DNA of 64,000 nucleotides from Acidimicrobiales bacterium (GCA_036279475.1 DASUJB010000147.1:1070-65069); one strand, 5' to 3'. Numbered from the stretch's first letter, positions 4,154-26,703 are shown. The notes: generated by a model not told the origin, from the letters alone. A program made the numbers and translations.

Positions 4154-4253
4154 GCTAGCGGCAGGGCCTGGGAAGCACCTGGGAGGGCCCTGGCGCGGCA
4201 CGCCTTGGCCGGTGGGCCGGCACCACCCTCCCCTCGGCGGCCCCGGACGTGCC

Positions 4254-4804: not shown

Positions 4805-6796
4805 TCACTCCTCCGAGGGCTGGGCCTGCGCCCGCCGCCGGATCTCGTCGACCACCGCGGGATCGGCCAGGGTGGTGGTGTCGCCCAGGTCCCGGCCCTC
4901 GGCGACGTCACGCAACAGCCGTCGCATGATCTTGCCCGAGCGGGTCTTGGGCAGCTCCTCGGTGAAGACCACCAGCTTGGGTCGCGCGGTGGGCCCGATC
5001 TTCCGGGCCACGTGGCCGCGCAGCTCCTCCCCCAGCGCCGGGGTGGCATCGACGCCACCCCGCACGGTGACGAAGGCGACGATGGCCTGGCCGGTCAGCG
5101 GATCCGTGGCGCCGCAGACGGCGGACTCGGCCACGGCCGGGTGGTCGACCAGGGCCGACTCGACCTCGGTGGTGGAGATCCGATGGCCGGACACGTTCAT
5201 CACGTCGTCGACCCGGCCGAGCAGCCACAGGTAGCCCTCATCGTCCACCTTGCACCCGTCGCCGGCGAAGTAGCGGTCGCCGAACCGTGCCCAGTAGGTG
5301 TCGCGGTAGCGGTCGGGGTCGCCGTAGATGCCCCGGAGCATCGAGGGCCAGGGGCGGGTGAGCGTGAGGTAGCCGCCACCCTTCTCGACCCGGGCACCGT
5401 CGTTGTCGACCACCTCGGCAGCGATGCCGGGGAGCGGGAAGGTGGCCGACCCCGGCTTGAGGGTGGTGACGCCGGGCAGGGGCGCGATCATGATGGCGCC
5501 CGTCTCCGTCTGCCACCACGTGTCGACGATCGGGCACCGGCCCCCGCCGATGTGGGTGTGGTACCACATCCACGCCTCGGGGTTGATGGGCTCGCCCACC
5601 GATCCCAGCAGGCGGAGCTTGGACAGGTCGTGGCGCGCCGGCTCCTGCTCCCCCCACTTCATGAACGTGCGGATCGTGGTGGGGGCCGTGTACAGGATGG
5701 TGACCCCGTAGCGCTCGGCCACCTCCCACAGGCGGTCCTTGCCGGGGGTGTCCGGCGTGCCCTCGTAGATGACGCTGGTGGCACCGTTGGCCAGGGGGCC
5801 GTAGACGATGTAGCTGTGGCCCGTCACCCAGCCGATGTCCGCCGAGCACCAGTAGACGTCGGTCTCCGGCTGCAGGTCGAAGACGTACCGGTGGGTGAAG
5901 GCGACCTGGGTGAGGTAGCCACCGGTGGTGTGCATGATGCCCTTGGGCTTCGCCGTCGTGCCCGACGTGTAGAGCAGGTAGAGGAGGTCCTCGCTGTCCA
6001 TCCGCTCGGGCTCACACACCGGTGCGGCCTCGGCCATGAGGTCGTGGAACCACAGGTCGCGGCCGTCGGTCATGTCGACGGCCACGTCTGCGTCGGGGTG
6101 GCTGGACACCCGGTCGACCACCACGACGTGCTCGATCGACGGGGTGGAGGCCAGCGCCACGTCGGCCGTGGGCTTGAGCAGGTGGGCCTGGCCGCGTCGG
6201 AAGCCCCCGTCGGCGGTGACGAGCACCTTGCAGGCGGCATCGTTGATGCGGTCGACGAGCGAGTCGGCGGAGAACCCGCCGAAGACCACCGAGTGGGGGG
6301 CGCCGATCCGGGCGCAGGCCAGCATGGCCACCGGCAGCTCCGGGATCATCGGCATGTAGATGGCGACCCGGTCGCCCTTGCCGACGCCCAGCCCCTTCAG
6401 GGCGTTGGCGAAGCGCTGCACGTCGGCCAGGAGGTCGGCGTAGGTGACGGTGCGCCGGTCGCCGGGCTCCCCCTCCCAGTAGTAGGCGACACGGGCGCCG
6501 TGCCCCGCCTCGACGTGGCGGTCGAGGCAGTTGTACGCGACGTTGAGCGTGCCACCCAAGAACCACTTGGCGAACGGCAGGTCCCAGTCGAGGACGGTGT
6601 GCCAGTGGTCGTACCACGACACCAGCTCGGACGCCTGGCGTGCCCAGAAGCCCTGCCAGTCGGCTTCGGCCTCGTCGTAGATCCCCGGGTCCCTGACCAG
6701 GGCACGGGCCGCGAAGTCGGCCGGGGGCGGGAACGTGCGATCCTCGCTGAGGTAGTCCTCGATCGCCGCGCCGTCAGCCTGCGGATCGGATGGCAT
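4805..6796 (-). CDS. acs: acetyl-CoA synthetase (AMP-forming)
   Basis: The 1006-aa ORF 4805..7825 was trimmed to the ATG at 6796, giving 663 aa. The protein is Acs-like along its length (WYDHWHTVLDWDLPFAKWF, YTSGTTAKPKG, WWQTETG, PKTRSGKIMRR). Confidence 0.95.
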   Translation of the reverse strand: MPSDPQADGAAIEDYLSEDRTFPPPADFAARALVRDPGIYDEAEADWQGFWARQASELVSWYDHWHTVLDWDLPFAKWFLGGTLNVAYNCLDRHVEAGHGARVAYYWEGEPGDRRTVTYADLLADVQRFANALKGLGVGKGDRVAIYMPMIPELPVAMLACARIGAPHSVVFGGFSADSLVDRINDAACKVLVTADGGFRRGQAHLLKPTADVALASTPSIEHVVVVDRVSSHPDADVAVDMTDGRDLWFHDLMAEAAPVCEPERMDSEDLLYLLYTSGTTAKPKGIMHTTGGYLTQVAFTHRYVFDLQPETDVYWCSADIGWVTGHSYIVYGPLANGATSVIYEGTPDTPGKDRLWEVAERYGVTILYTAPTTIRTFMKWGEQEPARHDLSKLRLLGSVGEPINPEAWMWYHTHIGGGRCPIVDTWWQTETGAIMIAPLPGVTTLKPGSATFPLPGIAAEVVDNDGARVEKGGGYLTLTRPWPSMLRGIYGDPDRYRDTYWARFGDRYFAGDGCKVDDEGYLWLLGRVDDVMNVSGHRISTTEVESALVDHPAVAESAVCGATDPLTGQAIVAFVTVRGGVDATPALGEELRGHVARKIGPTARPKLVVFTEELPKTRSGKIMRRLLRDVAEGRDLGDTTTLADPAVVDEIRRRAQAQPSEE

Positions 6797-6833: not shown

Positions 6834-8033
6834 CTACCCGCCCTCGCCCGGGGCCTCGCCGGGCGCCCACTCGAGCACCCTGAAGCCGCCCAGGCCCCCC
6901 CGGTCGGTGAGGGCGGCGGCCTCGAGCACCCGGCTGCGGGCGGCCAGGGCCGCCAGGTCGCCGACGTGGGCGCGCTCCTGCCACGTCGACCTCGCCTCGC
7001 CCACCAGGTCGTCCAGGCCGTGCCGTGCCAACCAGTCGGCCTGGGACCGGTCGGAGGTGGGCGGCCGGACCAGCGCGAGCTGGTCGACCGCCACCTCGCA
7101 CGTGACGTCCTGGCGGCCGAGGTCGTCGAGCGGTCCGCCGGCACGGCCGTGCGCCCGGTAGGTCCGGAGCCACTCGCCCTGCGGCCGGGTCGCCATGTCG
7201 GCCGTGGTGGTGACGTAGTCCACGACCACCACCCGACCGCCGGCTCCGGCGACGGCCAGCGCCTCGCGCAACCAGGACCGGGCCGCCTCCTGCAGGGCCA
7301 CCCGTGCCCCCTCGGCCGCCACGGGGACCAGCCGATCGAGTGCCGCGGACCGGCGGGCGTCGAGGGGCACCGCCCTCTCCGCGAGGCGGGGCCCACCACG
7401 ACCGGTGGCCAGGTCGACCCGGACCTCGTCCCAACGATCCACCGACCGCTGGGCCAGGCCGAAGGGGAGGTCGTCGAGCAGCTCGTTGGCCAGCACCACC
7501 GCCGGTCCCGCCACCCGAGGCAGGTCGGCGAGGCTGACGCACAGCGGACCGGCGGGACCGCCGGCCACCGGCGATCCGGTGTCCGGATCGACGGGCGGGA
7601 AGGCCAGCGCCGGGTCCTCCACCGGGAGGTGGCGGGCGTGCAGCCGTCGCTGGGCCACCGACCGCTCGACCAGGACGTAGCGCAGGGCGGTGGCGCAGGC
7701 GGGCGCGGCCGCCAGGACCGTCCGTGCCAGCGTGCCCGGTCCGGCCCCGGCCTCGACGACCACGTACGGCGACGGCCGGCCGAGCTGGTACCACCACTGG
7801 TCGAGCGCTCGGGCCACCACGCCACCGAAGAGGGGGCCGACCTCCGGGCTGGTCAGGAAGTCGCCCGACCGGCCGCCGGCCCGGCCACCCCTCTCGTAGA
7901 AGCCGGCGCCGGGCTGGTACAGCGCCAGCTCGAGCACCCGGTCGAAGGGCAGCGGGCCGTGCCGCCGGATCTCGGCGGCGACCGCCGCCTCCACGCCGGA
8001 GACCGGCGGGTCGGGCACGCTCACCGGCGCCAC
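6834..8033 (-). CDS. class I SAM-dependent methyltransferase, NDUFAF7/MidA (DUF185) family
   Basis: 399 aa. LYQPGAGFYERGG ... SGDFLTSPEVGPLFGG ... VVEAGAGPGTLA matches the DUF185/MidA signature. It lies 76 bp downstream of nuoN of operon 1. Confidence 0.75.
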   Translation of the reverse strand: MAPVSVPDPPVSGVEAAVAAEIRRHGPLPFDRVLELALYQPGAGFYERGGRAGGRSGDFLTSPEVGPLFGGVVARALDQWWYQLGRPSPYVVVEAGAGPGTLARTVLAAAPACATALRYVLVERSVAQRRLHARHLPVEDPALAFPPVDPDTGSPVAGGPAGPLCVSLADLPRVAGPAVVLANELLDDLPFGLAQRSVDRWDEVRVDLATGRGGPRLAERAVPLDARRSAALDRLVPVAAEGARVALQEAARSWLREALAVAGAGGRVVVVDYVTTTADMATRPQGEWLRTYRAHGRAGGPLDDLGRQDVTCEVAVDQLALVRPPTSDRSQADWLARHGLDDLVGEARSTWQERAHVGDLAALAARSRVLEAAALTDRGGLGGFRVLEWAPGEAPGEGG

Positions 8034-8109: not shown

Positions 8110-9621
8110 TCAGGGCGTCACGCCCGCCACGAAGTCGGCCATGTCGCCCAGCTCGGCCGCCCACTGGGTGACGCCGAAGGCCAACGTGAGGACGGCCGTG
8201 ATGGCCAGCGCCGCCGTCAACGACACCGGCAACCGCACGGGGGTGACGTCACCGTCGGGCGCAGGGTTCATCCACATCTCCTTGGCGACGTTGGCGTAGT
8301 ACGCCAGCGACACCACGGTGTTGACCGCCATCACCACGGCCAGGGCGTACCCCCACCCCGTGTCCGACTCGACCACCGCTCGGAAGGCGACGAACTTGGC
8401 CAGCCAACCGCCCAGGGGCGGGATGCCGGCCAGGGCAAACAGGAAGAGCGACATCAGGACGGCCAGGGACGGGGCGTACTCGAACAGCCCGCCGAACGTC
8501 GAGATGTCCGCGCTGCCCGTCTTGCGAGCCACCGCCATCACCACGGTGAAGGCACCGAGGTTCATGGCGGCGTAGATGAGCAGGTAGGTCACCACCGTGC
8601 TGAGGGTCGTGCCACCGATCTGGCCCACCACCGCCATGGGGGCGAGGATGAAGCCGGCCTGGGAGATCCCCGAGTAGGCCAGCATGCGCACCAGGTTCGT
8701 CTGGCGCAGCGCCACCACGTTGCCGACCGTCATCGAGCCCGCGGCCAGGACCCACATGAGCGGCCGGACGACCTCGGCCTGCTCGGCGAAGCCGATGACG
8801 ACGAGCTGCACCAGGGCCACGAACCCCGCGGCCTTGGAGGACACCGACAGGAAGGCGGTGACGGGCGTGGGCGCGCCCTCGTACGTGTCGGGTGCCCACG
8901 TGTGGAAGGGCACCGCCGACACCTTGAAGGCGAAGCCGGCGATCACGAACACGATGGCCAGGGTGATCACGGGGACGGAGCCGCCCGCGGTGCCGAGGGC
9001 CTCGCCGATGCCGCCGAGCCGGGTGGTACCCGCCACGCCGTACAGGAGCGACATCCCGTAGAGGAGCACACCCGTGGCGAACACCCCCATCAGGTAGTAC
9101 TTGACGCCGGCCTCGTTGCCCTTCCGGTCGCGCTTGCGCCAGCCGGCCAGGAGGTACGCGGGGACCGACAGGGTCTCGAGGGCGACGAAGATCGTGACGA
9201 GGTCGCGCGCCGACGCCATCACCGTCATCCCCAGGATGGACGACAGCAGCAGGAAGTAGTACTCGCCCTCCGCGTAGTCGCCCTCGGCGACGTAGTTGGT
9301 CGACAGCAGCACCGTGACGTACCCGGCCACGAGGAACAGGGCCTTGACCACGAGGGAGAAGTCGTCGACGGCGTAGGCGCCGCCGAACATCGTCCGGTCG
9401 GCGCCGTCGGCGGCCAGCGTGAGCACGGGGACGAGCGCGCCGAGCAGCCCGATCCCTGCCAGGGAGGGGAGCGCTCCCTTCCGGTCGTCCGGGAGGAAGA
9501 GGTCGGCCACCAGCACGAGGCACAGGACGCCCACGACGACCAGCTCGGGGGCGAGGGCGTGCCAGTCGATGTCGGGACGGGCGAAGCCGTCCTGCGACGC
9601 CCGGGCGAGGAGGGCCAGCAC
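8110..9621 (-). CDS. nuoN: NADH-quinone oxidoreductase subunit N (operon 1, 11-subunit type)
   Basis: 503-aa polytopic antiporter-like protein (VPFHTWAPDTYEGAPTPVTAF). GTG start at 9621, 6 nt after the nuoM stop. Confidence 0.9.
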   Translation of the reverse strand: MLALLARASQDGFARPDIDWHALAPELVVVGVLCLVLVADLFLPDDRKGALPSLAGIGLLGALVPVLTLAADGADRTMFGGAYAVDDFSLVVKALFLVAGYVTVLLSTNYVAEGDYAEGEYYFLLLSSILGMTVMASARDLVTIFVALETLSVPAYLLAGWRKRDRKGNEAGVKYYLMGVFATGVLLYGMSLLYGVAGTTRLGGIGEALGTAGGSVPVITLAIVFVIAGFAFKVSAVPFHTWAPDTYEGAPTPVTAFLSVSSKAAGFVALVQLVVIGFAEQAEVVRPLMWVLAAGSMTVGNVVALRQTNLVRMLAYSGISQAGFILAPMAVVGQIGGTTLSTVVTYLLIYAAMNLGAFTVVMAVARKTGSADISTFGGLFEYAPSLAVLMSLFLFALAGIPPLGGWLAKFVAFRAVVESDTGWGYALAVVMAVNTVVSLAYYANVAKEMWMNPAPDGDVTPVRLPVSLTAALAITAVLTLAFGVTQWAAELGDMADFVAGVTP

Positions 9622-9627
9622 GGCGGA

Positions 9628-11175
9628 TCAGCCGCCCACCGCGGCGGCGATGGACTGGGCCACGGAGGTGAGCTGGTCGTCCCCGACGCGGAACACCAGG
9701 TTCGGGTAGACGCCGACGACGAGGATCAGCACGAGGAGCGGCACCCAGGCGATCCACTCCGGCAGCGTGACGTCAGGGATCTCCTCGTCCTCGAACTCCT
9801 CGGTGGGCGTGCCGAAGGCCGTGCGCTGGTACAGCCACAGCAGGTAGCCGGCGGCGAACACCGTGCCCAGGGCGGCGACGACCATGTAGACGCGGAACAG
9901 CTCCTCGCTGAGGCCGGCGCCCGGCTGGTAGGTCGAGAGGATCGCCGGGAACTCGCCCCAGAAGCCGGCGAGGCCCGGCAGGCCCAGCGAGGCCATGGCC
10001 GTGAAGCCCAAGATCCAGCCCAGCCGCGGCGCCTTCACGAGGATGCCCCCCAGCCGGCGGATCTCCAGCGTGTGGTAGCGCTCCTTCACGGAGCCGGCGA
10101 TGAAGAAGAGCATGCCGGTGATGAGCCCGTGGGCGACCATGCCCATCAGGGCGGCGTTGAGCCCGAAGTCGGTGAGCGTGGCCACCCCGAGCATGGTGAA
10201 GCCCATGTGGGCGACCGACGAGAAGGCGATGAGCCGCTTCATGTCCGTCTGCGCCAGGCAGGCCAGGGCTCCGTAGATGATGCCGATGACGGCCAGCAGG
10301 CCGATCCACGGAGCCCACGACACCGCGGCCTCGGGCAGGATGGGCAGGGCGACCCGGACGAACCCGTAGGTGCCGAGCTTGAGGAGCACCGCCGCCAGGA
10401 TGACCGAGCCCACGGTGGGCGCCTGGGTGTGGGCGTCGGGCAGCCAGGTGTGGAACGGGAAGATCGGCACCTTGATGCCGAACCCCATGAACATCCCGCC
10501 GAAGATCAGCAGCTCGGTGGTGTGCGAGACGTTGCCGCGGGCCACCCCCGCGGCCAGGTCGCTCATGACGAACGAATCGCTGCCCGCCGCGAAGAAGAGC
10601 GCGAGGAAGCTCACGATCATCAGGGCCGACCCGAACAGCGTGAACAGGAAGAACTTGATGGCCGCGTACTGGCGCTGCTCACCGCCCCACACGCCGATGA
10701 GGAAGTACATCGGCAACAGCACGACCTCGAAGAACACGAAGAAGAGGATGAGGTCCTGGGCCACGAACGTGCCGAGCATGCCGGTGTGCAGCACGAGCAG
10801 CAGGATGAGGAAGGCCTTGGGGTTCCGTGGCTCGGGGAAGTGGTTCCACGAGTACACGATGCACAGCGGCACGATCAGCAGCGTCAGGGCGATCAACGGG
10901 ATCGACAGGCCGTCGATCCCGATCGCGTACCGGCTGTGGATCACGTCGATCCACGACTCGTCCACCACGAACTGCAGGCGGTCCGTGGCGCCGTAGTCGA
11001 AGTCGGCGATGACGGCGGCTCCGACACCCGCCGTGCCCAACGACACGACGAGGGCCAGCCACTTGTGCGCCGACTCCAGGGTCCTGGGCACGAGCAGCAT
11101 CACCAGGGCTCCTGCCAGAGGCAGGAACACCATGAGCGACAGGCCCCAGTCGGTCAGGAACTCGTTGTTGTCCAT
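9628..11175 (-). CDS. nuoM: NADH-quinone oxidoreductase subunit M (operon 1)
   Basis: 515 aa, with FPFHTWLPDAHTQAPTVGSVILA and an NuoM-type topology. ATG start at 11175. Confidence 0.9.
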   Translation of the reverse strand: MDNNEFLTDWGLSLMVFLPLAGALVMLLVPRTLESAHKWLALVVSLGTAGVGAAVIADFDYGATDRLQFVVDESWIDVIHSRYAIGIDGLSIPLIALTLLIVPLCIVYSWNHFPEPRNPKAFLILLLVLHTGMLGTFVAQDLILFFVFFEVVLLPMYFLIGVWGGEQRQYAAIKFFLFTLFGSALMIVSFLALFFAAGSDSFVMSDLAAGVARGNVSHTTELLIFGGMFMGFGIKVPIFPFHTWLPDAHTQAPTVGSVILAAVLLKLGTYGFVRVALPILPEAAVSWAPWIGLLAVIGIIYGALACLAQTDMKRLIAFSSVAHMGFTMLGVATLTDFGLNAALMGMVAHGLITGMLFFIAGSVKERYHTLEIRRLGGILVKAPRLGWILGFTAMASLGLPGLAGFWGEFPAILSTYQPGAGLSEELFRVYMVVAALGTVFAAGYLLWLYQRTAFGTPTEEFEDEEIPDVTLPEWIAWVPLLVLILVVGVYPNLVFRVGDDQLTSVAQSIAAAVGG

Positions 11176-11196
11176 CGTGAACCTTGGCGGTAGCCG

Positions 11197-13377
11197 TCAG
11201 ACGAAGATGATGATGACGCCGGCGAAGAGCGCGGCGGCACCGAAGAGGAGCGCCCCGTACTGCTGCACCTTGCCGGAGGTGAGTTGGCGGAAGACCTGGC
11301 CGCTGCTGTTGGCCGCAGCCGCCGACCCCGTGATGGCACCGTCGACGACCTGCTGGTCGATCCGGGTGTACACGAAGCGGCCGACGGCCGTGGCCCCCCG
11401 GCCGGCCCCGTTGACCACGCCGTCGATGACGTGCTGGTTGACCCAGTACGCGGCCCGGGCGACGGGACCCTTGACCGCACCGACGATCACGTCGGTGTAC
11501 AGCCAGTCGAGGTAGTACTTGTTCTCGAGCACCTGGCGGCCGACCCGGGCCAGGCGGTTGCGCTGCGTGATCCCGTGGGGACCGAGGCCCCGCCAGTACC
11601 ACAGGTAGGCGACGCCGATGCCGAGGACGGCCACGATCGTGGCCGTGACGGCGATCCCGGGGGAGAACTCCGGGTGGCTGAAGTTGGCCGTCGGGAAGTA
11701 CGGGGCCTTCGGCTCGTAGAAGTGCTCGAACCGCAGGTCGAGCCCGTCACCGGGCCCCACCGCCGCCGGCAGGTTGGCGAAGCCGGCGGTCACCCCTAGG
11801 ACGGCCAGCACCCACAGCGGGACCGTGAGGCGGGGGCCCGATTCGTGTGGGTGACCGTGGCCGCGGTACTCGCCGAAGAACGTCAGGTACACGACCCGGG
11901 TCATGTAGGCCGCCGTCATCAGGGCCCCGACGATGCCCACGACCATGAACGCGGTGTAGCCGCCCCCGCCGCCGAGCTGGCTGGCACCTGCGAGGATCTC
12001 GTCCTTCGACCAGAACCCCGCCAGGGGGAAGATGCCGACGAGGGCCCCCGTGGCGATGAGGAAGGTCCGGTAGGTGTGCGGCATCCACCGCCGCAGACCC
12101 CCCATGTCCTTGCGCATGTCGAAGCTGTGCACGGCGTGGCTGACCGACCCGGCGCCCAGGAACAGGCAGGCCTTGAAGAAGGCGTGGGTGAAGAGGTGGA
12201 AGAACGCTGCCGTCCAGGCTCCCACGCCCAGCGCCATCACCATGTAGCCGAGCTGCGACACGGTCGAGTAGGCGAGGACCTTCTTGATGTCGTTCTGGAC
12301 GAACGCCAGCCCGGCACCGCCGAGCACCGTGACCGCGCCCACCACGGCGAGCAGGTTCACGCTGGACACGCCGATGCTCAGGCCCTCGAAGAACACGCCG
12401 TAGAGGCGGCCCACCATGTAGACGCCGGCGACCACCATCGTGGCCGCGTGGATGAGGGCCGACACGGGCGTGGGTCCGGCCATGGCGTCGGGCAGCCACG
12501 TGTGGAGGATGAACTGCCCCGACTTCGACATGACCGCGGCCACCAGCGAGCACGACGCCACCAGCAGGGCGAGGTGGCTGATGTCGCCCGACAGCGCCTG
12601 GGAGTTGATGTCGACGATGTCGAAGGTCTGCCCGGCTGCGAAGTACAGGGTGATGACGCCGACGATCAGGCCAACGTCCCCCACGCGGTTGGTGATGAAC
12701 GCCTTGAGGGCGGCGTCGCTGTTCGCCTTCTCCTCCCACCAGTGGCCGATGAGCGCGAACGAGCACAGGCCCACCAGCTCCCAGCACACGAGGAGCTGCA
12801 GCGTCGACGTGGACATGACCAGGCCGAGCATCGACGCCGTGAACAGCGACAGGAAGGCGAAGAAGTGGGTGTAGCGCCGGTCGCCGTGGACGTAGTCGGT
12901 GGAGTACACGTGCACCAGGAGGGACACGAGCGTGACGACGACCAGCATCATCGCGGCCGGGCCGTCCAGCAGCATCCCGGCCTCGACGTCGACCCCGCCG
13001 ATCTCGAACCAGGTCCAGGTCCGCTGGACGGGCGGGACCTCGTGCTCCTCCTCCTCGGCCGCGGCGGCGACCTCTCCGCCCTGCCCACCGGTGCCCTCGA
13101 CCCCTCCGGCGGTGGTGGCCTCGGCCAGCTCGCCCTCGCCCCCGAGGGCGTGACCCGTACCCTCCCCCGCCTCCTCGGCGGTGGCCTCGTGGGCGGCCGG
13201 CGGGTCCTCGACGTGGTCGAACCACTGGACGTTGGTGGCGATCGCCAGCACGAAGGCGACGGCGACGGCGGCGATGCCGACCTCGCTGCCCTTCCTGGGC
13301 AGGCGCTTGCCGAAGAAGAGGATCAGGAAGAACGAGGCGGCGGGGACGAGGGGGATGATCCAGGCGTTGTCGAGCAC
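11197..13377 (-). CDS. nuoL: NADH-quinone oxidoreductase subunit L (operon 1), with an acidic/Gly-rich insertion near the N-terminus
   Basis: 726 aa, with HTWLPDAMAGPTPVSALIHAATMV and a C-terminal lateral-helix region. GTG start at 13377. Confidence 0.9.
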   Translation of the reverse strand: MLDNAWIIPLVPAASFFLILFFGKRLPRKGSEVGIAAVAVAFVLAIATNVQWFDHVEDPPAAHEATAEEAGEGTGHALGGEGELAEATTAGGVEGTGGQGGEVAAAAEEEEHEVPPVQRTWTWFEIGGVDVEAGMLLDGPAAMMLVVVTLVSLLVHVYSTDYVHGDRRYTHFFAFLSLFTASMLGLVMSTSTLQLLVCWELVGLCSFALIGHWWEEKANSDAALKAFITNRVGDVGLIVGVITLYFAAGQTFDIVDINSQALSGDISHLALLVASCSLVAAVMSKSGQFILHTWLPDAMAGPTPVSALIHAATMVVAGVYMVGRLYGVFFEGLSIGVSSVNLLAVVGAVTVLGGAGLAFVQNDIKKVLAYSTVSQLGYMVMALGVGAWTAAFFHLFTHAFFKACLFLGAGSVSHAVHSFDMRKDMGGLRRWMPHTYRTFLIATGALVGIFPLAGFWSKDEILAGASQLGGGGGYTAFMVVGIVGALMTAAYMTRVVYLTFFGEYRGHGHPHESGPRLTVPLWVLAVLGVTAGFANLPAAVGPGDGLDLRFEHFYEPKAPYFPTANFSHPEFSPGIAVTATIVAVLGIGVAYLWYWRGLGPHGITQRNRLARVGRQVLENKYYLDWLYTDVIVGAVKGPVARAAYWVNQHVIDGVVNGAGRGATAVGRFVYTRIDQQVVDGAITGSAAAANSSGQVFRQLTSGKVQQYGALLFGAAALFAGVIIIFV

Positions 13378-13386
13378 GATTCCCCG

Positions 13387-13695
13387 CTATCCCCTCATCG
13401 AATCGATCTCGTCGAGGTCAACGCTCGACCGGTTCCGGTAGATGATCAGCACCATGGCCAGGCCGACGCCGACCTCTGCGGCGGCGACCGCGATGACGAA
13501 GAGGGCGAACACCGCCCCCGTGATGTCGTTGCCCATCGCCCCGAATGCAAGCAGGTTGATGTTCACCGCGTTCAGGATGAGCTCGATCGACATGAGCACG
13601 AGCACCGTGTTCTTCCGAGCGATCACCCCGTACACGCCGGTGCAGAAGAGGATCGCCCCCAGTAGGAGGAACTGGTTGAGCAGCAACTCGTCCAT
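13387..13695 (-). CDS. nuoK: NADH-quinone oxidoreductase subunit K (operon 1)
   Basis: 102 aa with three TM helices (SIELILNAVN, AAAEVGVGLA). Its ATG overlaps the nuoJ stop as ATGA at 13695-13697. Confidence 0.9.
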   Translation of the reverse strand: MDELLLNQFLLLGAILFCTGVYGVIARKNTVLVLMSIELILNAVNINLLAFGAMGNDITGAVFALFVIAVAAAEVGVGLAMVLIIYRNRSSVDLDEIDSMRG

Positions 13696-14207
13696 CAGCG
13701 GTCCTTCCGGGCGATGACGATGGCCCCGATCAGGGCCGCCAGCAGCAGGACCGAGATCGCCTCGAAGGGGATCAGGAACTGGCTGAAGATGGCGTCACCG
13801 ATGGTGGACGTGTTGCTGCCGTCGACGGTGGCGATCTGGCGGTCGTTGGGCAGCGGGTCGTCGCCGAAGTTTTCGATCAGGGCGTAGCCCATCACGCCGG
13901 CGAGCAGGGCGGCAGTGACGACGCCCGCCCACCAGTGGCTGTTCGTCATCTGCTCGTCGCGCCCGATGCGGCTGCGGGTGAGCATGATGCCGAACAGCAT
14001 CAGGACCATGATCGCACCGATGTACACGAGGACCTGCGTGACGGCCACGAACTCGGCGGCCAGGAGGATGAACTGCGCCGCCACGCCGGCGAACACGACG
14101 ATCAACGCCAACGCCGATCGCACGACGTTGCGGTTGGTCACCACCACGACGGAAGCTGCCACCATGACCGCGGCGATGGCGTAGAAGAAGACGTTCTCGG
14201 CGACCAT
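13695..14207 (-). CDS. nuoJ: NADH-quinone oxidoreductase subunit J (operon 1)
   Basis: ORF 13695..14534 trimmed to the ATG at 14207, giving 170 aa ([14 protein letters not shown]...). It overlaps the nuoI stop as ATGA. Confidence 0.85.
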   Translation of the reverse strand: MVAENVFFYAIAAVMVAASVVVVTNRNVVRSALALIVVFAGVAAQFILLAAEFVAVTQVLVYIGAIMVLMLFGIMLTRSRIGRDEQMTNSHWWAGVVTAALLAGVMGYALIENFGDDPLPNDRQIATVDGSNTSTIGDAIFSQFLIPFEAISVLLLAALIGAIVIARKDR

Positions 14208-14761
14208 CAGCGGGGCACCTTGCGAACCTTCTGCTCCGACCCCGCCTCGTACGGCTCGAAGTCCGGGACGGTCTCCATCCACTGACCGAGGCGCTCCTTG
14301 TCGTGGAGGAGGTCGGCCAGGCGCAGCTCGGAGTACTCGTACTCCGGGCTCCAGAACAGCGCGTCGAACGGGCAGACCTCGACGCAGATGCCGCAGTACA
14401 TGCAGAGGGCGTAGTCGATGTCGAAGCGGTCCAGCTCGTTGACCGTGCGGGGCCGACCACCGGGGCGGCGGGGCGGGGCGGTGGCCTTGTGGCCCTCGAT
14501 GTAGATGCACCAGTCGGGGCAGCTGCGGGCGCACAGCATGCAGACCGTGCAGTTGTCCTCCTTGAGGGCGATCACCCCCCGGGCCCGCGGCGGCGGGGTC
14601 TCCTTCTCGTGGGGGTACTGGACGGTGGCCGCCCCCTGGGAGGGAGCGGGGACGAGCGTGCGGACGCCCCGCGAGGGGAACATCGTCTTCGCCATCGTCT
14701 TGAGCGTGACGCCCAGGCCCTTCACGAGGCCCGGCGCCTTCGGCGTGGGGATCTCCGCCAC
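14207..14761 (-). CDS. nuoI: NADH-quinone oxidoreductase subunit I (operon 1), 2x[4Fe-4S]
   Basis: 184 aa with two ferredoxin motifs, [12 protein letters not shown] and [12 protein letters not shown]. Confidence 0.9.
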
Positions 14762-15798
14762 TACCAGGCCACCTTCAGAGCCATGGTCGCCAGGATGTTG
14801 ACCAGCGACAGCGGGATGAGGAACTTCCAGGCGAGCTGCTGGAGCTGATCCTCACGGAAGCGTGGGTAGGTGAACCGCACCCAGAAGACCACGAACGACA
14901 CCAGCATGATCTTCACCAGGAGCACGATCGGGCCCACCACGTTCATGTAGTCGGCGTCGAGGTCCATCCCCGGCAGCGCCCAGCCACCGAGGAACAGCGT
15001 GGCAGCCACCGCCGAGAACGCGCCCACGCTGGCGAACTCGGCGATGAAGAACAGCAGGAACCGCATGCCCGAGTACTCGGTCATGTAGCCGGACACCAGC
15101 TCCGACTCGGCGATCGGCATGTCGAAGGGTGCCTGGGTCAGCTCCGCCTGCATCGACACGAGGAAGATGAAGAAGCCCACGAACTGGGTGATGATGTACG
15201 GGTTGCCGATGCCGGAGAACCCGAAGATCTCGCCGTCGGCCTGGGCGGCGACGATGCCCTGCATGTTGAGCGTGCCGGCCTGGATGACCACGCCGACGAC
15301 GGCCAGGACCATCGGCAGCTCGTAGGCGATGAGCTGCCCTGCCGCCCGGAGGCCGCCCAGGAGCGAGTACTTGTTGGCCGACGCCCACCCGGCGAGGAGG
15401 ATGCCGAGCACGGAGATCGACGAGACGGCCAGCACGTAGAAGATGCCGACGTCCAGGTCGGTGAACCAGGCGTCAGGGCCGAACGGCACCGCCGCCAGGA
15501 TGAGGAAGACGGCCAGGACCACCACGTACGGCGCCATGGCGAACAACCGCCGGTCGGCCCGCCACGGGATGATGTCCTCCTTCTGGATCCACTTGCCCAC
15601 CTCGGCCAGGAGCTGCATCGAGCCGTAGGGACCGGCCTCCATGGGCCCGAGCCGGCTCTGCATGAAGCTCATCATCTTGAACAGGAAGACGTAGACGAGG
15701 GTGCCCGCCAACAGCAGCACCGCTGCCAGCACGCCGACCGATCGCAGCACCGTCTGCTGCCAGTAGGCCAACTCGATCGCGAGCAGCGAGGCCGTCAT
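14761..15798 (-). CDS. nuoH: NADH-quinone oxidoreductase subunit H (operon 1)
   Basis: ORF 14761..15879 trimmed to the ATG at 15798, giving 345 aa. That ATG overlaps the nuoD stop (ATGA at 15795-15798), so nuoH directly follows nuoD. Confidence 0.9.
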
Positions 15799-16967
15799 CG
15801 GTCGATGTCTCCCAGGATGAAGTACAGGCTGGCGAGGATCGTGATGATGTCGGGCACGTAGACCCCGCGCAGCAGCCACGGAACGATGGAGACGTTCGAG
15901 AAGCTGGCCGAGCGGATCTTGACCCGGAACGGACCCAGGTCGCCCTTGCTCACCAGGTAGTAGCCCGTGACGCCGAGGGGGTTCTCGGTGGCGACGTAGG
16001 CCTCACCCGCCGGCACCTTGATGATCCGAGGCACCTTGGCCATGATCGGCCCGCCCGGCAGGCCGTCGCAGAGCTGGTCGACGATGCCCGTCGCCTCGCG
16101 AGTCTCCTGGAGGCGCACCCAGCACCGGGCGAAGCTGTCCCCGTCGGGGTGCGTCCACACCCGCCAGTCGACCTCCCGGTGGGCCAGGCCGACGTCGCCG
16201 TCACGCCGAAGGTCCCAGTCGACCCCCGTGGCCCGCAGGTTGGCCCCCGTGAGCCCGTAGGACAGCGCCACCTCGGGAGGGATGACGCCCACGCCACGGG
16301 TGCGGGCCTGGAAGATCTCGTTGCCGAAGAGGAGCGCCTCGACCTCGTCGCAGAAGTCCCTGATCCGTGCCATCACGGCCTTGGTGTCCGCCACCCATCC
16401 CTTGGGCAGGTCGTCCCTCAGCCCTCCGATGCGGTCGAAGTTGGGATGGAACCGCCCGCCCGTCACCGCCTCGATCTGGTCGAGGACGTGCTCGCGGTCG
16501 CGGAAGGCGTAGAAGGCCGGGGTGACGGCACCCAGCTGCACCCCCAGGTCACCGAGGAAGAGGACGATGTTGGCGATCCTGGCCATCTCGAACAGGATCG
16601 TGCGGATGTGACGGGCCCGAGGTGGCGCCTCGATCTCCATCAGCCGCTCGGCGGCCAGGATGAAGGGCACCTCGTTGGCGAAGCTGCCCAACCAGTCGAT
16701 GCGGTTGACGAGCGTGGTGATCTGGGGATAGGTGCGGACCTCGGTGAGCTTCTCGTAGCCCCGGTGCATGTAGCCCGGCACCACGTCGGCCCACACCACC
16801 TGCTCGCCGTCGAGCTTGGCGGTGATGCGGAGCGTCCCGTGGGTGGCCGGATGCTGGGGGCCGAGGTTGATGACCATGCCCTCGTCGGTCTCGAGCTCCA
16901 CGTTGACCCGGCCCTCGGCGGCTTGGGCGTCGACGTAGGCGAGCTGCTGGCGCTCCGTCACCGTCAC
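15795..16967 (-). CDS. nuoD: NADH-quinone oxidoreductase subunit D (operon 1)
   Basis: ORF 15795..17171 trimmed to the GTG at 16967, giving 390 aa. It overlaps the nuoC stop as GTGA. It has GPQHPATHGTLR and HRGYEKL, and ends ILGDIDR. Confidence 0.9.
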   Translation of the reverse strand: MTVTERQQLAYVDAQAAEGRVNVELETDEGMVINLGPQHPATHGTLRITAKLDGEQVVWADVVPGYMHRGYEKLTEVRTYPQITTLVNRIDWLGSFANEVPFILAAERLMEIEAPPRARHIRTILFEMARIANIVLFLGDLGVQLGAVTPAFYAFRDREHVLDQIEAVTGGRFHPNFDRIGGLRDDLPKGWVADTKAVMARIRDFCDEVEALLFGNEIFQARTRGVGVIPPEVALSYGLTGANLRATGVDWDLRRDGDVGLAHREVDWRVWTHPDGDSFARCWVRLQETREATGIVDQLCDGLPGGPIMAKVPRIIKVPAGEAYVATENPLGVTGYYLVSKGDLGPFRVKIRSASFSNVSIVPWLLRGVYVPDIITILASLYFILGDIDR

Positions 16968-17665
16968 TCGGCGACCTCCTCGGTCCGGCCGTCGCCCGAC
17001 GGAGGCTCGTCGGGCATCGGCTCCACGTCGACGATGCCCGGCCACGGCTTCACCAGCCGGGCCAGCAGCGGGAAGTCCTTGCGGAGAGGGTTCCCCTCGA
17101 AGCCGCTCGGAAGGTAGATGTGGCGCAGGCCGGGATGCCCCTCGAAGGTGATGCCGAACATCTCCCAGCACTCACGCTCGTGCCAGCTGGCCCCGCTGAA
17201 CAGCGGCACGAGGCTGGCGATGCGCAGGTCGTCGTCGGGGACGTCCGCCTTGAGGACGACGTTGAGGTGCGCTTCTTCGTGGCGGCGGACGTTGGCGAGG
17301 CGGCAGACCACCTGGAACCGCGTGTCGCCCCCGGCGTACCCGGTCTCGAAGGGACCTTCCGGCAGGGAGGGGGCCGCCCCCTCGAGGGCGGCGTCCTCGT
17401 AGCGACCCCACGGTGACGGCGCCCAGTCGATGGCGGACAGGAACTCGAAGAAGGTGCAGCCCAGCTGGTACTTGGCCGCCTCGGCGGCGGCCGTCCACGC
17501 CGACCGATCCACCCGGAGCCACGAGCCGTGGCCGGGCTGGACGTGGCTGCCCAGGACGGCGTCGCCCAAGGCGTCGGTGAGGGTGTCGACGACCCCCTGA
17601 CGTGCCTCGTCGAGCTGGGTCCCGCCAGCCTCGCCCGCCGGGACCTCGGTGGTGTCCGCCATCAC
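16964..17665 (-). CDS. nuoC: NADH-quinone oxidoreductase subunit C (operon 1)
   Basis: 233 aa, with [20 protein letters not shown] and NPLRKDFPL. The GTG at 17665 overlaps the nuoB stop; an ATG at 17662 is an alternative. Confidence 0.85.
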
Positions 17666-18162
17666 TGCGCCACCAACGGGTCGCCCCGCCAGCGCTCGGC
17701 CATGTCCTCCCGGCCGATGCGCTGCTGGAGCAGGACGATGCCCTCGAGCAGGGCCTCCGGCCGGGGTGGGCAGCCCGGCACGAAGACGTCGACGGGGATG
17801 ACCTGGTCGACGCCCTTCGTCACCGAGTAGCTGTCCCAGTAGGGACCGCCGCAGTTGGCGCAGGAACCCATGGAGATGACGTACTTGGGATCGGCCATCT
17901 GCTCGTAGAGCCGCTTGATGGCAGGGACCATCTTGTCGGTCACCGTGCCGGAGATGATCACCACGTCGGCCTGGCGGGGGCTCGACGGGAGGGGGATGAC
18001 CCCCAGTCGCATCACGTCATAGCGGGGCGACGCGAAGGCGGCGCCCATCTCGATGGCACAGCAGGCCAGGCCCCACTGGTACGCCCAGAGGCTGTACTTG
18101 CGAGCCGTGTTGAGCAGGGAGGTGAGCGGCTTGGGCAGCTTGCCGCTCTCGACGAGACCCAT
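17662..18162 (-). CDS. nuoB: NADH-quinone oxidoreductase subunit B (operon 1), N2 cluster ligands intact
   Basis: ORF 17662..18288 trimmed to the ATG at 18162, giving 166 aa. The ligand motifs [19 protein letters not shown] and PGCPP are all present. Confidence 0.9.
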
Positions 18163-18178
18163 CAGCCGACGTCCTGTC

Positions 18179-18571
18179 TCAGATCCAGCGGAGGACCTTC
18201 TTCTTCCACGCGTAGAGCAGCCCGAGGGCGAGGACAGCGATGAAGATGCCCATCTCCGTGAACCCGAACCACCCGTAAGCCTCGGCACGGGTGGCGAAGG
18301 GGAAGACGAACACCGCCTCGACGTCGAACAGCACGAACAGCAGAGCGAACAGGTAGTAGCGCACCTGTGTCTGGCCCCACATCGACCCGGCAGGATCGAC
18401 GCCCGACTCGTAGTTGACGTACTTCTCGGCCTGCGGGCGTACCGGGCGCACGAGGCGACCGAGGCCCAGGATCGTGCCCACCAGCGCGATCGCCACGCCC
18501 GCGAAGACGCCGACGGTGAGATACGACCGGAGGAGGTCCGACACGGGGGCGAGACTAGTGATCGCCTGCAC
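18179..18571 (-). CDS. nuoA: NADH-quinone oxidoreductase subunit A (operon 1)
   Basis: The C-terminal 120 aa of ORF 18179..18613 are NuoA-like ([24 protein letters not shown]). The start is ambiguous among GTG 18571, GTG 18544 and the ORF start at 18613. Confidence 0.8.
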
Positions 18572-18652: not shown

Positions 18653-19645
18653 TCAGGCGCACCGGTCGACGTAGCGCACGGCGTCGTGCTCGCCGACCGT
18701 GATCCCGATGACCGTCATGCCGTCGGTCTGGAAGGCGATGCCGGTGCCGTCGCCGGCATCGGCGCGGTAGATGTGCCCGTTCGACACCATCGGGTGGGGT
18801 CGGTCGTCGAGGTTGCCGGCGTAGGCCGCCAGCACCTGGTCCTGGGGCGCGCCCAACCTGATGGCGCTGTCGCTGGCACGGTTGGTGGGCAGCCCGGACT
18901 CGATGGAGACGGTCGACAGCACCCCCTGCGACGGATCGTCGACGCCGCGGTCGTCGGGGGCCCGGAACCGCAGCTCGAGGTCGAGCGCACCGGCCACCCG
19001 GGCCACGAAGCAGGTGCCCCCTGACGCCTCGAGCTCGGCCCGGTCGGGCTGGATGTTCATCCCCGCGGCCTGCAGGTCGGCGAGGGTAGCCCCGATCCGG
19101 AGCGGTCCCACCCCGTGAGGTGTCAGCTCGGCCCCGGGGTCGATGGTCCCGGGGGCGGTGGTGGGAGGCGGGGCCGTGGTCGACGGGGGTGGCGCACCGG
19201 TGGTCGGCGTGCGCGCCTCGTCCGCCTCCGGCGGAGCCGAGCCGCGGCCGTCGGCGGGGTCCTCGTCGGGGGACTGGACGGCTGCCAGGACGAGGAGCAG
19301 TGTCAGCACCGCCGCCACGATGCCGACGACGCGGCCCCGTGACGACGGGCGGGGCGGGCGCGGCACCTCCCCGGCACGCAGGCCCTCGAGGAGGTTGCGG
19401 TCGTCGATCACCGGCGGCGGCTGGGTGATCGGGCGGATCGCCGACCGGGGGGCCAGGCGGAGCTGGGGCTCGTCGGCCAGGCGGGCGTCGAGCTCGGGCC
19501 AGAAGTCGGGACCGTGCCGAGGGGGCGCCAGCCCCCGGAGCGCGGCCCCCAGCGGGCTGCCCGCCCCGGAGGGACCGGCATCGGCATCGGGCTCGGCGGC
19601 GTCGGGCCCCCCGGGGTGGGCGTGAGCGGGCGGGCGCCTGGTCAT
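18653..19645 (-). CDS. single-pass membrane protein, putative cognate anti-sigma/sensor partner of the upstream sigma factor
   Basis: 330 aa. Its ATG overlaps the sigma-factor stop (ATGA at 19642-19645). It has a Pro-rich cytoplasmic N-terminus, one TM helix (VVGIVAAVLTLLLVLAAV), a Pro/Thr-rich linker and a roughly 170-aa extracytoplasmic domain. There is no HxxxCxxC zinc motif. Confidence 0.55.
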   Translation of the reverse strand: MTRRPPAHAHPGGPDAAEPDADAGPSGAGSPLGAALRGLAPPRHGPDFWPELDARLADEPQLRLAPRSAIRPITQPPPVIDDRNLLEGLRAGEVPRPPRPSSRGRVVGIVAAVLTLLLVLAAVQSPDEDPADGRGSAPPEADEARTPTTGAPPPSTTAPPPTTAPGTIDPGAELTPHGVGPLRIGATLADLQAAGMNIQPDRAELEASGGTCFVARVAGALDLELRFRAPDDRGVDDPSQGVLSTVSIESGLPTNRASDSAIRLGAPQDQVLAAYAGNLDDRPHPMVSNGHIYRADAGDGTGIAFQTDGMTVIGITVGEHDAVRYVDRCA

Positions 19646-20871
19646 CGGGCGTTGCTCACGCCGCCAGCGCCGTCCGGCCCCTCCGCCTCGGCGGTCCCCC
19701 TGCGGGCGGTGTCCCGCGCTCGCCGCCGGCCTCGCCGGCCCCGTCCGCGGTCGGCTGGCACCCGGGTGTGCGTCACGGTCCCCTCCGAGGTCGCGGCACC
19801 ACGCGAGCCGGCCACCGGCCGCTCGCCGCCGGAGCCGGCTGGGGTGGGCGTCACCGCCGGCGCCTCCTCGCTCCCGGACGTGGCCCTCCTCCCCGGCCCG
19901 ACGCCGACTGCAGCGTCCCCGGACGCGGCGTCCCCCGCCGCGGCCGCGGCGACGGCGTCGTCCCCGGCCACTCCGTCGCCGACAGCACCGTCGCCGTCCG
20001 CCGGGGCGGCGGGCATCCCGGGGCCGCGGTCGGCATCGCCACCGGCGGCGGCCGGCTCGCCGACGACCCGTGCCGGCGGCACGCCGTCACCGCCACGCTC
20101 CTCCTCCTGCTCCTGCTCCGGGTCGGCCGGGGCGCCGCGGCCCGAGGCAGGTGGGCCGCCGCGGCCGGGCCCCTCGGCGGAGCCCTCGACTCCGGCCGCC
20201 GCGGCGCGGAGGGCGGCCGCGTCCTCGGCGGCGATCACGATCTCCTCCGAGAGGTCGGGCGGAGCGCTGTCGATGTCGGCATCCCCGGCCGGTAGTGCCA
20301 TGGCACCGACCGGCAGTGCCACCGCCCCGACCGGGGCCGCGCTGGACGGCCCGCCGACCGGGTCCGGCGACGGGGCCGCTCCGGCCGTGCTCGGGACCTC
20401 CGGCACCCACGGCGCCAGCCGGTCGCGGGCCACGGCCAGGCGGGCCTCGATCACGTCGACGCCCATCCCGAGGATGCGGGCAGCCGAGCGGGCGGTGAAG
20501 CCCTCCCGCTCCACCAGCACCACCGCCACCCGGTCGGCCGGCGCTAGCGCCACCAGGCCGGCGGCCAGGCCGGCGGTGGCGTCGGCCGGTGGCTCGCCCC
20601 GGCGGAGCTGGTCGATGCAGGCGTTGTAGACGGACCGGTAGAGCCAGGGCCCGACCTCGTCGCGGGGACTGATGCGGACCACGTCACGCCAGGCCCGCAG
20701 GTACGCCAAACCCATCGCCGCGTCCATCTGCCGCCGGTCGAGCACCAGCGCGTGGGTCAGCCCCCGCAGGCGACGGTCGTAGCGGGTGAGGAGCGCGGCG
20801 AAGGCCCGCCGGTCGCCTTGCTGCGACCGCCGGACGAGGGTGGCATCGCTCAGTCTTCGTGACTTGGGCAC
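19642..20871 (-). CDS. ECF-type sigma-70 family RNA polymerase sigma factor with a ~255-aa low-complexity C-terminal extension
   Basis: 409 aa, GTG start at 20871. The first ~153 aa resemble sigma regions 2 and 4 (RRSQQGDRRAFAALLTRYDRRL ... WLYRSVYNACIDQLRR ... LVEREGFTARSAARILGMGVDVIEARLAVARDRL). The rest is Ala/Gly/Asp/Pro-rich and ends in an Arg-rich patch. Confidence 0.8.
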   Translation of the reverse strand: MPKSRRLSDATLVRRSQQGDRRAFAALLTRYDRRLRGLTHALVLDRRQMDAAMGLAYLRAWRDVVRISPRDEVGPWLYRSVYNACIDQLRRGEPPADATAGLAAGLVALAPADRVAVVLVEREGFTARSAARILGMGVDVIEARLAVARDRLAPWVPEVPSTAGAAPSPDPVGGPSSAAPVGAVALPVGAMALPAGDADIDSAPPDLSEEIVIAAEDAAALRAAAAGVEGSAEGPGRGGPPASGRGAPADPEQEQEEERGGDGVPPARVVGEPAAAGGDADRGPGMPAAPADGDGAVGDGVAGDDAVAAAAAGDAASGDAAVGVGPGRRATSGSEEAPAVTPTPAGSGGERPVAGSRGAATSEGTVTHTRVPADRGRGRRGRRRARDTARRGTAEAEGPDGAGGVSNAR

Positions 20872-26375: not shown

Positions 26376-26385
26376 GGGTTCCCTC

Positions 26386-26703
26386 TCACCCCTCGAGCAG
26401 AGCGGCGTCGTCGGCCGTGGCGTGGGGCCGCTTGCGCAGCAGGGCGACGATGATGGCCAGCCCCACCACGACCTCGGCTGCCGCCACCACGAGCACGAAC
26501 ACGACGGTGGACTGCCCCCCCGTGTCGCGCAGCATCCGGGAGAACGTGACGAACGTGAGCGTCACCGCGTTGAGCATCAGCTCGACGCACATGAACATCA
26601 CCAGCGGGTTGCGCCGGACGAGCAGCCCGAAGGTGCCGATGGCGAACAGCACCGATGCCAGGATCAGGTACCAGGCCGGTGTGACCTGGACGGCGGCGAT
26701 CAC
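26386..26703 (-). CDS. nuoK: NADH-quinone oxidoreductase subunit K (operon 2)
   Basis: This is the C-terminal 105 codons of the over-extended ORF 26386..28056. The GTG at 26703 overlaps the nuoJ stop as GTGA. It has CVELMLNAV and [10 protein letters not shown]. Confidence 0.85.

Follow-up and report, generated by a model that had tools for sequence, protein, structure and literature searches.

The window analyzed here is a 64,000-nucleotide (nt) stretch of DNA, read along one strand, from an Acidimicrobiales bacterium (GCA_036279475.1, DASUJB010000147.1:1070-65069). It has a G+C content of approximately 72% and carries two operons for subunits of respiratory complex I. The subject of this report is the smaller of them, nuo2, in which open reading frame (ORF) calling delineated 11 minus-strand genes, in the order nuoA-B-C-D-H-I-J-K-L-M-N, between positions 8110 and 18544. 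As judged from its genes and their relatives, nuo2 encodes an intact, anciently diverged, and conserved complex I-like enzyme that has no NADH module of its own.

A first-pass annotation of the window had proposed this gene order, without nuoE, nuoF, and nuoG, and the ORFs, NCBIfam, and Pfam bear it out: NCBIfam named 10 of the 11 genes, and Pfam identified NuoN. The operon begins with nuoA2 (18179 to 18544; 121 amino acids from a GTG codon at 18544), for which the top NCBIfam match was the NuoA model NF005839 (E = 1.7e-35, under the model cut-off), followed by nuoB2 (17662 to 18162), which encodes the carrier of iron-sulfur (Fe-S) cluster N2 and scored 215 bits against the cut-off of 116 for NF005012. 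The top match of nuoC2 (16964 to 17665) was the NuoC model TIGR01961 (E = 1.3e-27, under the cut-off). The next gene, nuoD2 (15795 to 16967), encodes a short-form NuoD of 390 amino acids that passed NF004739 (373 bits; cut-off, 360); its top-scoring model, NF008974 (366 positions), aligned from end to end with 380 bits, under the cut-off of 522. NF004741 gave nuoH2 (14761 to 15798) a score of 304.9 bits (cut-off, 305), and nuoI2 (14207 to 14761), encoding the subunit that carries two [4Fe-4S] clusters, had the NuoI model TIGR01971 as its top match (E = 7.5e-26, under the cut-off). For nuoJ2 (13695 to 14207; 170 amino acids from an ATG codon at 14207), the top match was the NuoJ model NF005168 (E = 8.9e-40, under the cut-off), and nuoK2 (13387 to 13695) scored 127.8 bits with NF004322 (cut-off, 128) and 111.6 bits with NF004320 (cut-off, 57). 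The operon ends with nuoL2 (11197 to 13377; 726 amino acids), nuoM2 (9628 to 11175), and nuoN2 (8110 to 9621), which were identified by NF005141 (580 bits; cut-off, 556), TIGR01972 (552 bits; cut-off, 264), and PF00361 (E = 8e-66), respectively.

Adjacent nuo2 genes overlap by 4, 4, 4, 1, 1, and 1 nt and are otherwise separated by gaps of no more than 21 nt. For example, the nuoB2 stop and the nuoC2 start have 4 nt in common, and the nuoD2 stop and the nuoH2 start share an ATGA at 15798 to 15795, an overlap that had already been recognized in the first-pass annotation as excluding hidden genes. The tight packing and this overlap leave no room for nuoE, nuoF, or nuoG, and inspection of all junctions confirmed that these three genes are absent from within the operon. 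An in-frame GTG at 18571 had originally been taken as the nuoA2 start; however, comparison with orthologues, in which NuoA2 conservation begins at VSDLLR, favors the GTG at 18544. Upstream of this codon, a possible TTGGCC-18 nt-TAGTCT promoter was read by eye, and its use would make the nuoA2 transcript nearly leaderless; a consensus promoter and terminator scan was uninformative in this high-G+C DNA. At approximately residues 55 to 115, between the first helices and transmembrane helix 3 (TM3), NuoL2 carries a variable low-complexity insert rich in Ala, Glu, and Gly; the spacing across this region is 178 residues here and ranges from approximately 120 to approximately 230 residues in orthologues.

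The subunits of both operons were aligned to the Escherichia coli proteins, whose residue numbers are used for the pump residues. NuoL2 keeps E144, D178, K229, H254, H334, H338, K342, K399, and D400; NuoM2 keeps E144, K234, K265, H322, H348, and E407; and NuoN2 keeps E133, K217, K247, and K395. Likewise, E36 and E72 are retained in NuoK2, Y59 is retained in NuoJ2, and D79 and E81 are retained in NuoA2. The N2 ligands of NuoB2 (CC, C, and C) show no variation among 73 orthologues, and both CxxCxxCxxxCP motifs of NuoI2, which correspond to clusters N6a and N6b, are invariant in 68 orthologues. As read from these alignments, the proton-pumping and electron-transfer hardware of nuo2 is intact. It had been proposed that the Fe-S ligands were intact and that nuo2 was not a decaying copy; both statements hold, since the reading frames are undisrupted and 68 to 80 orthologues retain the cofactor and pump residues, which rules out decay. 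A membrane-bound hydrogenase was also ruled out: NuoD2 has GPQHPATHG and YFILGDIDR without a cysteine at either hydrogenase site and therefore does not have the cysteine ligands of a [NiFe] center.

When one genome per species was scanned, NuoD2 relatives turned up on at least 567 contigs, and 80 of these loci were kept for comparison. All of them derive from Acidimicrobiales or from unclassified Actinomycetota metagenome-assembled genomes (MAGs), and they include members of the Microthrixaceae and Ilumatobacteraceae, "Candidatus Aldehydirespiratoraceae," Desertimonas flava SYSU D60003, and Aquihabitans sp. McL0605. NuoD2 has thousands of relatives; its top matches are 79 to 91% identical, and the named ones are from Acidimicrobiales. 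The order A-B-C-D-H-I-J-K-L-M-N is kept in every related locus that reaches far enough, and nuoD2 and nuoH2 are adjacent in all 76 loci that contain both genes. From the conserved order, this adjacency, and the presence of relatives across the order, we conclude that nuo2 has long been inherited vertically in the Acidimicrobiales under purifying selection; it does not represent a remnant, nor did it arise by recent duplication.

Upstream of nuo2 and on the same strand lies a complete, canonical nuoA-N operon of 14 genes (operon 1; 21029 to 37127, minus strand), separated from it by a gap of 2.4 kb between nuoN1 and nuoA2, as previously noted. Pfam confirmed its NuoE (PF01257), NuoF (PF01512 and PF10589), and NuoG (Fer2_4, NADH-G_4Fe-4S_3, Fer4_Nqo3, and molybdopterin domains), which makes it a possible source of NuoEFG. 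Between the two operons, paralogous subunits, which had seemed clearly different by eye, are only 29 to 42% identical, and for this reason nuo2 is not a recent truncated copy of operon 1. The relationships of NuoD2 agree with this conclusion. In a HMMER scan of 1.84 billion cluster representatives, the nearest full-length representatives were 55% and 49% identical to NuoD2, and the others were no more than 45% identical; by this comparison, NuoD2 is an isolated lineage. A neighbor-joining tree of 101 NuoD sequences, which has no labeled Fpo, Fqo, Bacillus, or Streptomyces members, placed NuoD2 with other short-form sequences that have Trp at position 87 (Thermus thermophilus Nqo4 numbering), separate from the long-form Tyr87 proteins NuoD1, Nqo4, and NdhH and from many short-form Tyr87 sequences. 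Bootstrap support was 52/60 for the Trp87 clade, 56/60 for NuoD2 with the cluster representative P0121, and 60/60 for the sister group. A recent truncated duplicate, which the first-pass annotation had named as one outcome that would overturn its proposal, is thus ruled out by the low paralogue identity and the separate clades.

The proximity of the two operons raises the question of whether the nuo2 subunits assemble with NuoE, NuoF, and NuoG of operon 1 to give an NADH:menaquinone isozyme, an arrangement that we consider unlikely. The NuoEFG genes are only 2.4 kb upstream on the same strand, and the operons are neighbors in 29 of 60 loci, in which the 14-gene operon lies inside the sequenced upstream flank at distances of 145 nt to 7.2 kb; some of these gaps, of 145 to 173 nt, are compatible with cotranscription. 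However, the remaining 31 loci have no 14-gene operon in the sequenced upstream flank. NuoC, NuoD, and NuoI take part in docking NuoG, as the Thermus structure shows; NuoC2, NuoD2, and NuoI2, where such docking would be expected, are only 29 to 42% identical to their paralogues and belong to a separate, old clade. A shared module of this type was raised by Spero et al. for Syntrophobacter, which has one nuoEFG set and carries the other genes in duplicate (PMC4453560); in Desulfitobacterium hafniense, by contrast, NuoE/F-like proteins did not covary with the 11-subunit enzyme (PMC11238625).

A further feature of the nuo2 enzyme is its predicted quinone site, for which phmmer and MAFFT alignments of NuoD2, numbered according to Nqo4, were in agreement. 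The canonical His34 and His38 are kept, the latter in 80/80 orthologues, and His38 is the only member of the canonical head-group set His38/Tyr87/Asp139 that NuoD2 retains. Tyr87 is replaced by Trp (80/80), Thr135 by Asp (78/80), Asp139 by Gln (78/80), Phe146 by Ala (orthologues have Val in 60 cases and Ala in 20), and Asp401-Pro402 by Tyr-Phe (80/80), and positions 314 to 336 are absent in this short form. In NuoH2, the Glu-Arg pair of TM1 (E. coli E36-R37) is replaced by Leu-Phe (69/69 and 61/69, respectively), and E. coli E216 is replaced by Ile or Val (68/69). In contrast, NuoD1 is a long form with the canonical His38, Tyr87, Asp139, and Asp401, and NuoH1 retains the Glu-Arg motif. We infer from this pattern of replacement and conservation that the nuo2 pocket has probably been re-engineered rather than lost; Tyr401 and Asp135 may have taken over from the missing proton donor and carboxylate.

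In the canonical enzyme, the quinone head group is hydrogen bonded by His38 and Tyr87, and mutations of the Tyr87 equivalent give strong inhibitor resistance; a natural Y87W exchange has been seen in NuoD of piericidin-producing Streptomyces (PMC4758237). This tie between Y87W and inhibitor resistance also speaks for the NADH-linked isozyme outlined above, which would differ from operon 1 in its quinone pocket, perhaps binding quinone with another affinity or resisting inhibitors. Degli Esposti ascribed the Streptomyces exchange to self-resistance (PMC4758237). Trp87 is universal in the sequences studied here, occurring in 80/80 NuoD2 proteins and in 120/120 members of an orphan clade described below. 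The Streptomyces Y87W proteins may be no more than paralogues belonging to the Trp87 clade.

The same residues can be read in another way, namely, that the enzyme works in a noncanonical direction or with a noncanonical acceptor: the proton motive force would drive electrons from menaquinol to a low-potential acceptor, for instance ferredoxin, or some other membrane acceptor would be reduced. It is suggestive that Tyr87, Asp139, and Asp401 of NuoD and the TM1 Glu-Arg pair of NuoH were replaced and then held invariant, and that operon 1, which is assumed to use the same quinone pool, keeps all of them. However, the proton-pump machinery is canonical throughout, as are His38 and the N2 ligands, nothing points to a different acceptor, and the proposal is drawn from residue patterns; we regard it as improbable.

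A gene for a MidA/NDUFAF7-like S-adenosylmethionine-dependent methyltransferase (6834 to 8033, minus strand; PF02636, 96.4 bits against a cut-off of 23.3) lies 76 nt downstream of nuoN2, and its product matches PDB entry 5ztz_A, an NDUFAF7 homologue, with an E value of 1.1e-14. A PF02636 gene directly follows nuoN2 in 36 of 48 loci. Mitochondrial NDUFAF7 carries out the symmetric dimethylation of Arg85 of the 49-kDa subunit, in the sequence LLHRGTEK; this mark is also found in Paracoccus and is absent in E. coli, and the corresponding Thermus position is a threonine (PMC3750175, PMC3829151), which is Nqo4 Thr64, in the HRG loop. NuoD2 has the target arginine, R69, in GYMHRGYEK, and this residue is present in 120/120 orthologues, whereas NuoD1 has a threonine in its place (GYLHTGMEK). 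The methylase target is therefore found only in the second enzyme, and the 6834-8033 product is predicted to be an arginine methylase and assembly factor for NuoD2. It can be envisioned that the pocket and this dedicated methylase together adapt a Trp87-type enzyme to reverse running onto ferredoxin or F420, or to another acceptor, but such a role is a long shot on the residue patterns described here. If it were true, it would supply aerobic actinobacteria with strong reductant by a membrane-driven route.

The sister clade of NuoD2 consists of an orphan NuoD-like gene of Actinomycetes (relatives of cluster representative P0225) that occurs in Cryptosporangium, Micromonosporaceae, Pseudonocardiales, Sphaerisporangium, and "Candidatus Nanopelagicales." At the three loci examined (L081, 10001 to 11146; L082, 5845 to 7002; and L083, 10001 to 11179), the gene stands alone, with no other nuo genes within 10 kb, adjoins ftsH-folE-folP-folB-folK, and has a PF02636 methyltransferase gene 2.6 to 5.6 kb away; these loci represent Cryptosporangium arvum, a Nanopelagicales MAG, and one further metagenome contig. 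The orphan proteins resemble NuoD2 in their short form, in their Trp87 and RG target arginine (both in 120/120 sequences of the orphan set), and in the nearby PF02636 gene, but they differ in that they are encoded by a single gene and have various residues in place of Asp139 and Asp401. Because the orphan clade combines the RG arginine with a nearby PF02636 gene, the link between Trp87-type NuoD proteins and MidA-like methyltransferases spans two actinobacterial classes. In Streptomyces coelicolor, nuoD2 together with a separate nuoA2-N2 cluster is presumably of this kind. If the Trp87-type enzyme did run in reverse or onto another acceptor, the NuoD-plus-MidA pair seen as an orphan in Actinomycetes would represent either a leftover of that system or a part of it put to new use.

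The first-pass annotation had proposed that the nuo2 enzyme draws electrons from a donor other than NADH. The operon has no NADH module of its own, and published work favors such a donor (PMC3144371, PMC7771536, PMC11238625); the genes examined here point to no particular one. Modules of the FpoF/FrhB, NdhS/NdhV/NdhO, flavodoxin, and hydrogenase types were not found in the operon or among the window ORFs selected for Pfam scans, and FpoF/FrhB-, NdhS-, or ferredoxin-type partners were not found among the conserved neighbors of the 80 loci; the search for FpoF- or NdhS/V/O-like partners that had been suggested thus yielded none in either set. Clustering of the flanking ORFs of these loci recovered only MidA and housekeeping genes, the latter encoding a glutamine amidotransferase, a STAS-domain protein, a threonine dehydratase-like protein, a kinase, and a LigB dioxygenase. 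An earlier survey found no dedicated partner for 11-subunit enzymes either (PMC3144371).

Ferredoxin is the donor of NDH-1. It is also the proposed donor of Firmicute 11-subunit enzymes, and a multidonor model has been put forward for the enzyme of D. hafniense (PMC11238625). By analogy with these systems, we tentatively suggest a soluble low-potential protein as the donor, probably a ferredoxin, an assignment that we hold to be somewhat short of probable. The particular ferredoxin that had been put forward as the donor, encoded at 41766 to 42182, lies outside both nuo operons. The protein has two CxxCxxCxxxCP motifs; its gene is approximately 23 kb away, has its start 10 nt upstream of the gene for cytochrome b, and belongs to a cluster for cytochrome b, subunit IV, a Rieske protein, and cytochrome c; it was therefore ruled out as a nuo component and is better read as part of a bc-type complex.

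F420H2 had been named as a second candidate, and the corresponding proposal is that nuo2 encodes an Fpo/Fqo-like F420H2 dehydrogenase that receives electrons via an FpoF-like subunit encoded elsewhere. F420 is made by many actinobacteria. NuoD2 is a short form without Nqo4 positions 314 to 336 and aligns with the FpoD model from end to end. An F420H2 dehydrogenase has also been proposed for "Candidatus Actinomarinales" (PMC7771536). Nevertheless, there is no FpoF/FrhB-type gene in the operon, the scanned window ORFs, or the conserved neighbors; Nuo models outscore Fpo models throughout, with the Fpo cut-offs far off; and NuoD2 does not cluster with either of two archaeal NuoCD-like representatives (from Methanonatronarchaeales and Methanofastidiosia). 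An F420H2 dehydrogenase is accordingly quite improbable in our view.

We propose that electrons would enter the nuo2 enzyme singly, at the exposed 2x[4Fe-4S] subunit NuoI2, from a soluble low-potential carrier encoded away from the operon; reduced ferredoxin would be the likeliest carrier, and F420H2 acting via a separately encoded adaptor would be a less likely one. The electrons would then pass via N2 to menaquinone in the remodeled pocket (His38, Trp87, Gln139, Tyr401, and Asp135), and quinone reduction would drive proton pumping through NuoH/A/J/K and NuoL/M/N. We further predict symmetric dimethylation of Arg69 of NuoD2 in the course of assembly. Taken as a whole, this account of an 11-subunit enzyme that couples a soluble low-potential donor, likely ferredoxin, to menaquinone reduction and proton pumping is, in our judgment, modestly favored.

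Several considerations weigh against it. The nuo2 enzyme is known here from sequence alone. Decylubiquinone reduction fell severely in Yarrowia and E. coli when the Tyr87 equivalent was mutated, to Trp among other residues (PMC4758237), so that a pocket with Trp at this position may not reduce quinone in the canonical manner, and the compensating roles suggested for Tyr401 and Asp135 come from the alignment alone. Furthermore, the ferredoxin assignment is made by analogy only. Finally, NuoEFG are encoded 2.4 kb away, and an NADH-linked hybrid may form.

Other genes of the region provide the setting of the two operons. Between them are a gene for a sigma-70 region-2 protein of the extracytoplasmic function type (19642 to 20871) and, overlapping it by 4 nt, an ORF for a proline-rich protein with one hydrophobic segment (18653 to 19645), both on the minus strand; the latter product is probably an anti-sigma factor paired with the sigma factor, and its ORF is common only to the closest relatives (L001 to L004). 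Beyond the MidA-like gene, the minus strand encodes an acetyl-CoA synthetase (approximately 4805 to 6790), a HAD phosphatase (4254 to 4751), and an M48/HtpX-like peptidase (3299 to 4201). The bc-type cluster lies directly upstream of nuoA1, also on the minus strand, and comprises genes for a small membrane protein (42185 to 42661), the 2x[4Fe-4S] ferredoxin-like protein discussed above, the N-terminal part of cytochrome b (40964 to 41755), the C-terminal part of cytochrome b or subunit IV (40165 to 40947), the Rieske protein (39283 to 40146), and cytochrome c (approximately 38042 to 39400), followed by an ORF of unassigned function (37153 to 38040). It seems unusual for a bc-type operon to have a dicluster ferredoxin encoded 10 nt ahead of a split cytochrome b. 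A Rex-like redox-sensing repressor gene (58746 to 59444) is located near a heme biosynthesis cluster that includes a siroheme synthase-like gene (58098 to 58730), a porphobilinogen deaminase gene (55917 to 57032), a fused HemD/methylase gene (54332 to 56008), and an ALAD gene (52581 to 53561), all on the minus strand. A search for Rex operators near either nuoA gene gave two weak matches with three mismatches (at 33899 and 42615), neither of which is at a nuo promoter.

Complex I-like enzymes with 11 subunits are widespread, and the question of their electron donor has stood since at least 2011 (PMC3144371). Acidimicrobiales, which abound in soil, wastewater, freshwater, and marine systems, have the two enzyme types next to each other, and the named relatives with nuo2 loci, Aquihabitans sp. 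McL0605 and D. flava SYSU D60003, make the donor question approachable. To this question, the present analysis adds testable handles in the form of an invariant noncanonical quinone pocket, a methylation target confined to the second enzyme, and a link to an orphan NuoD.

Comparison with known systems places nuo2 among several types of complex I-like enzyme. The canonical 14-subunit type (Nuo14) has its N-module encoded with the complex; nuo2 differs in this respect and shares the pump residues. The ancestral NUO11 type, which was defined by the absence of a genomic N-module (Degli Esposti, 2015), is not matched either, since nuoEFG are present in the adjacent 14-gene operon.

Cyanobacterial and plastid NDH-1, a ferredoxin:plastoquinone oxidoreductase into which ferredoxin electrons enter at NdhI, likewise has 11 core subunits and no NuoEFG. 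However, its NdhH is a long form with the canonical Tyr87, Asp139, and Asp401, its genes are scattered rather than arranged in a single operon, and it requires NdhS, NdhV, and NdhO, nothing comparable to which is encoded in the scanned window ORFs or the conserved neighbors here. The archaeal Fpo/Fqo enzymes, which are F420H2:methanophenazine or quinone oxidoreductases, have the same 11 core subunits and a short-form FpoD, as in NuoD2, but the FpoF/FqoF input subunit has no counterpart in nuo2, the scanned window ORFs, or the conserved neighbors. For nuo2 subunits that have an Ndh or Fpo counterpart, Nuo models scored higher, and the Ndh and Fpo cut-offs were far from reached (NdhH, 319 versus 583; NdhI, 60 versus 302; NdhF, 485 versus 963; FpoD, 311 versus 600; FpoH, 274 versus 475; FpoL, 390 versus 1050; FpoK, 108 versus 145; and FpoI, 44 versus 180).

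The end-to-end alignment of NuoD2 with NF008974 shows no insertion at Nqo4 314 to 336, but its score falls well below the cut-off of that model, as given above. We take NF008974 and the top NuoA, NuoJ, and NuoK models to be of the Bacillus type. The 11-subunit enzymes of Firmicutes (the Bacillus cereus group and D. hafniense) share the gene order of nuo2, and no dedicated partner is known for them (PMC3144371, PMC11238625). In contrast to the situation here, their hosts have no adjoining 14-gene operon, and NuoD2 falls into a separate Trp87 clade in a tree without labeled Bacillus members.

The closest known counterpart is found within the actinobacteria, which were listed among the phyla with an 11-subunit complex I by Moparthi and Hagerhall in 2011 (PMC3144371). 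Lopez-Perez et al. reported in 2020 that "Candidatus Actinomarinales," of the class Acidimicrobiia, have two nuo clusters, one of them an 11-gene set that has no EFG; the arrangement is described as "like other actinobacteria," and F420 is suggested as the donor (PMC7771536). In a 2021 preprint, NDUFAF7 and htpX come after the same 11-gene operon, and a 14-gene operon is nearby (bioRxiv 10.1101/2021.02.01.429150). The two-operon arrangement is therefore not new. The two systems agree in class, gene order, the close 14-gene operon, and the downstream PF02636 gene, and the htpX that follows NDUFAF7 there parallels the M48 peptidase gene at 3299 to 4201 here. They differ in the genes between the operons (heliorhodopsin and an Fe3+ ABC transporter there; the sigma and likely anti-sigma genes here) and in G+C content (approximately 32% there versus approximately 72% here). 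From this likeness, we infer that nuo2 is probably orthologous to the 11-gene operon of "Candidatus Actinomarinales."

In conclusion, the arrangement of nuo2 is already known, and what our analysis adds to it is detail. No description of the invariant remodeled pocket was found in the accessible portions of the literature on related 11-gene enzymes, and the same holds in the related literature for the arginine difference between NuoD2 and NuoD1 and for the sister relationship of NuoD2 to the MidA-linked orphan NuoD. These three features, the pocket, the arginine difference, and the orphan sister link, are the details by which the nuo2 enzyme of this Acidimicrobiales bacterium extends the published picture of two complex I operons in one genome.

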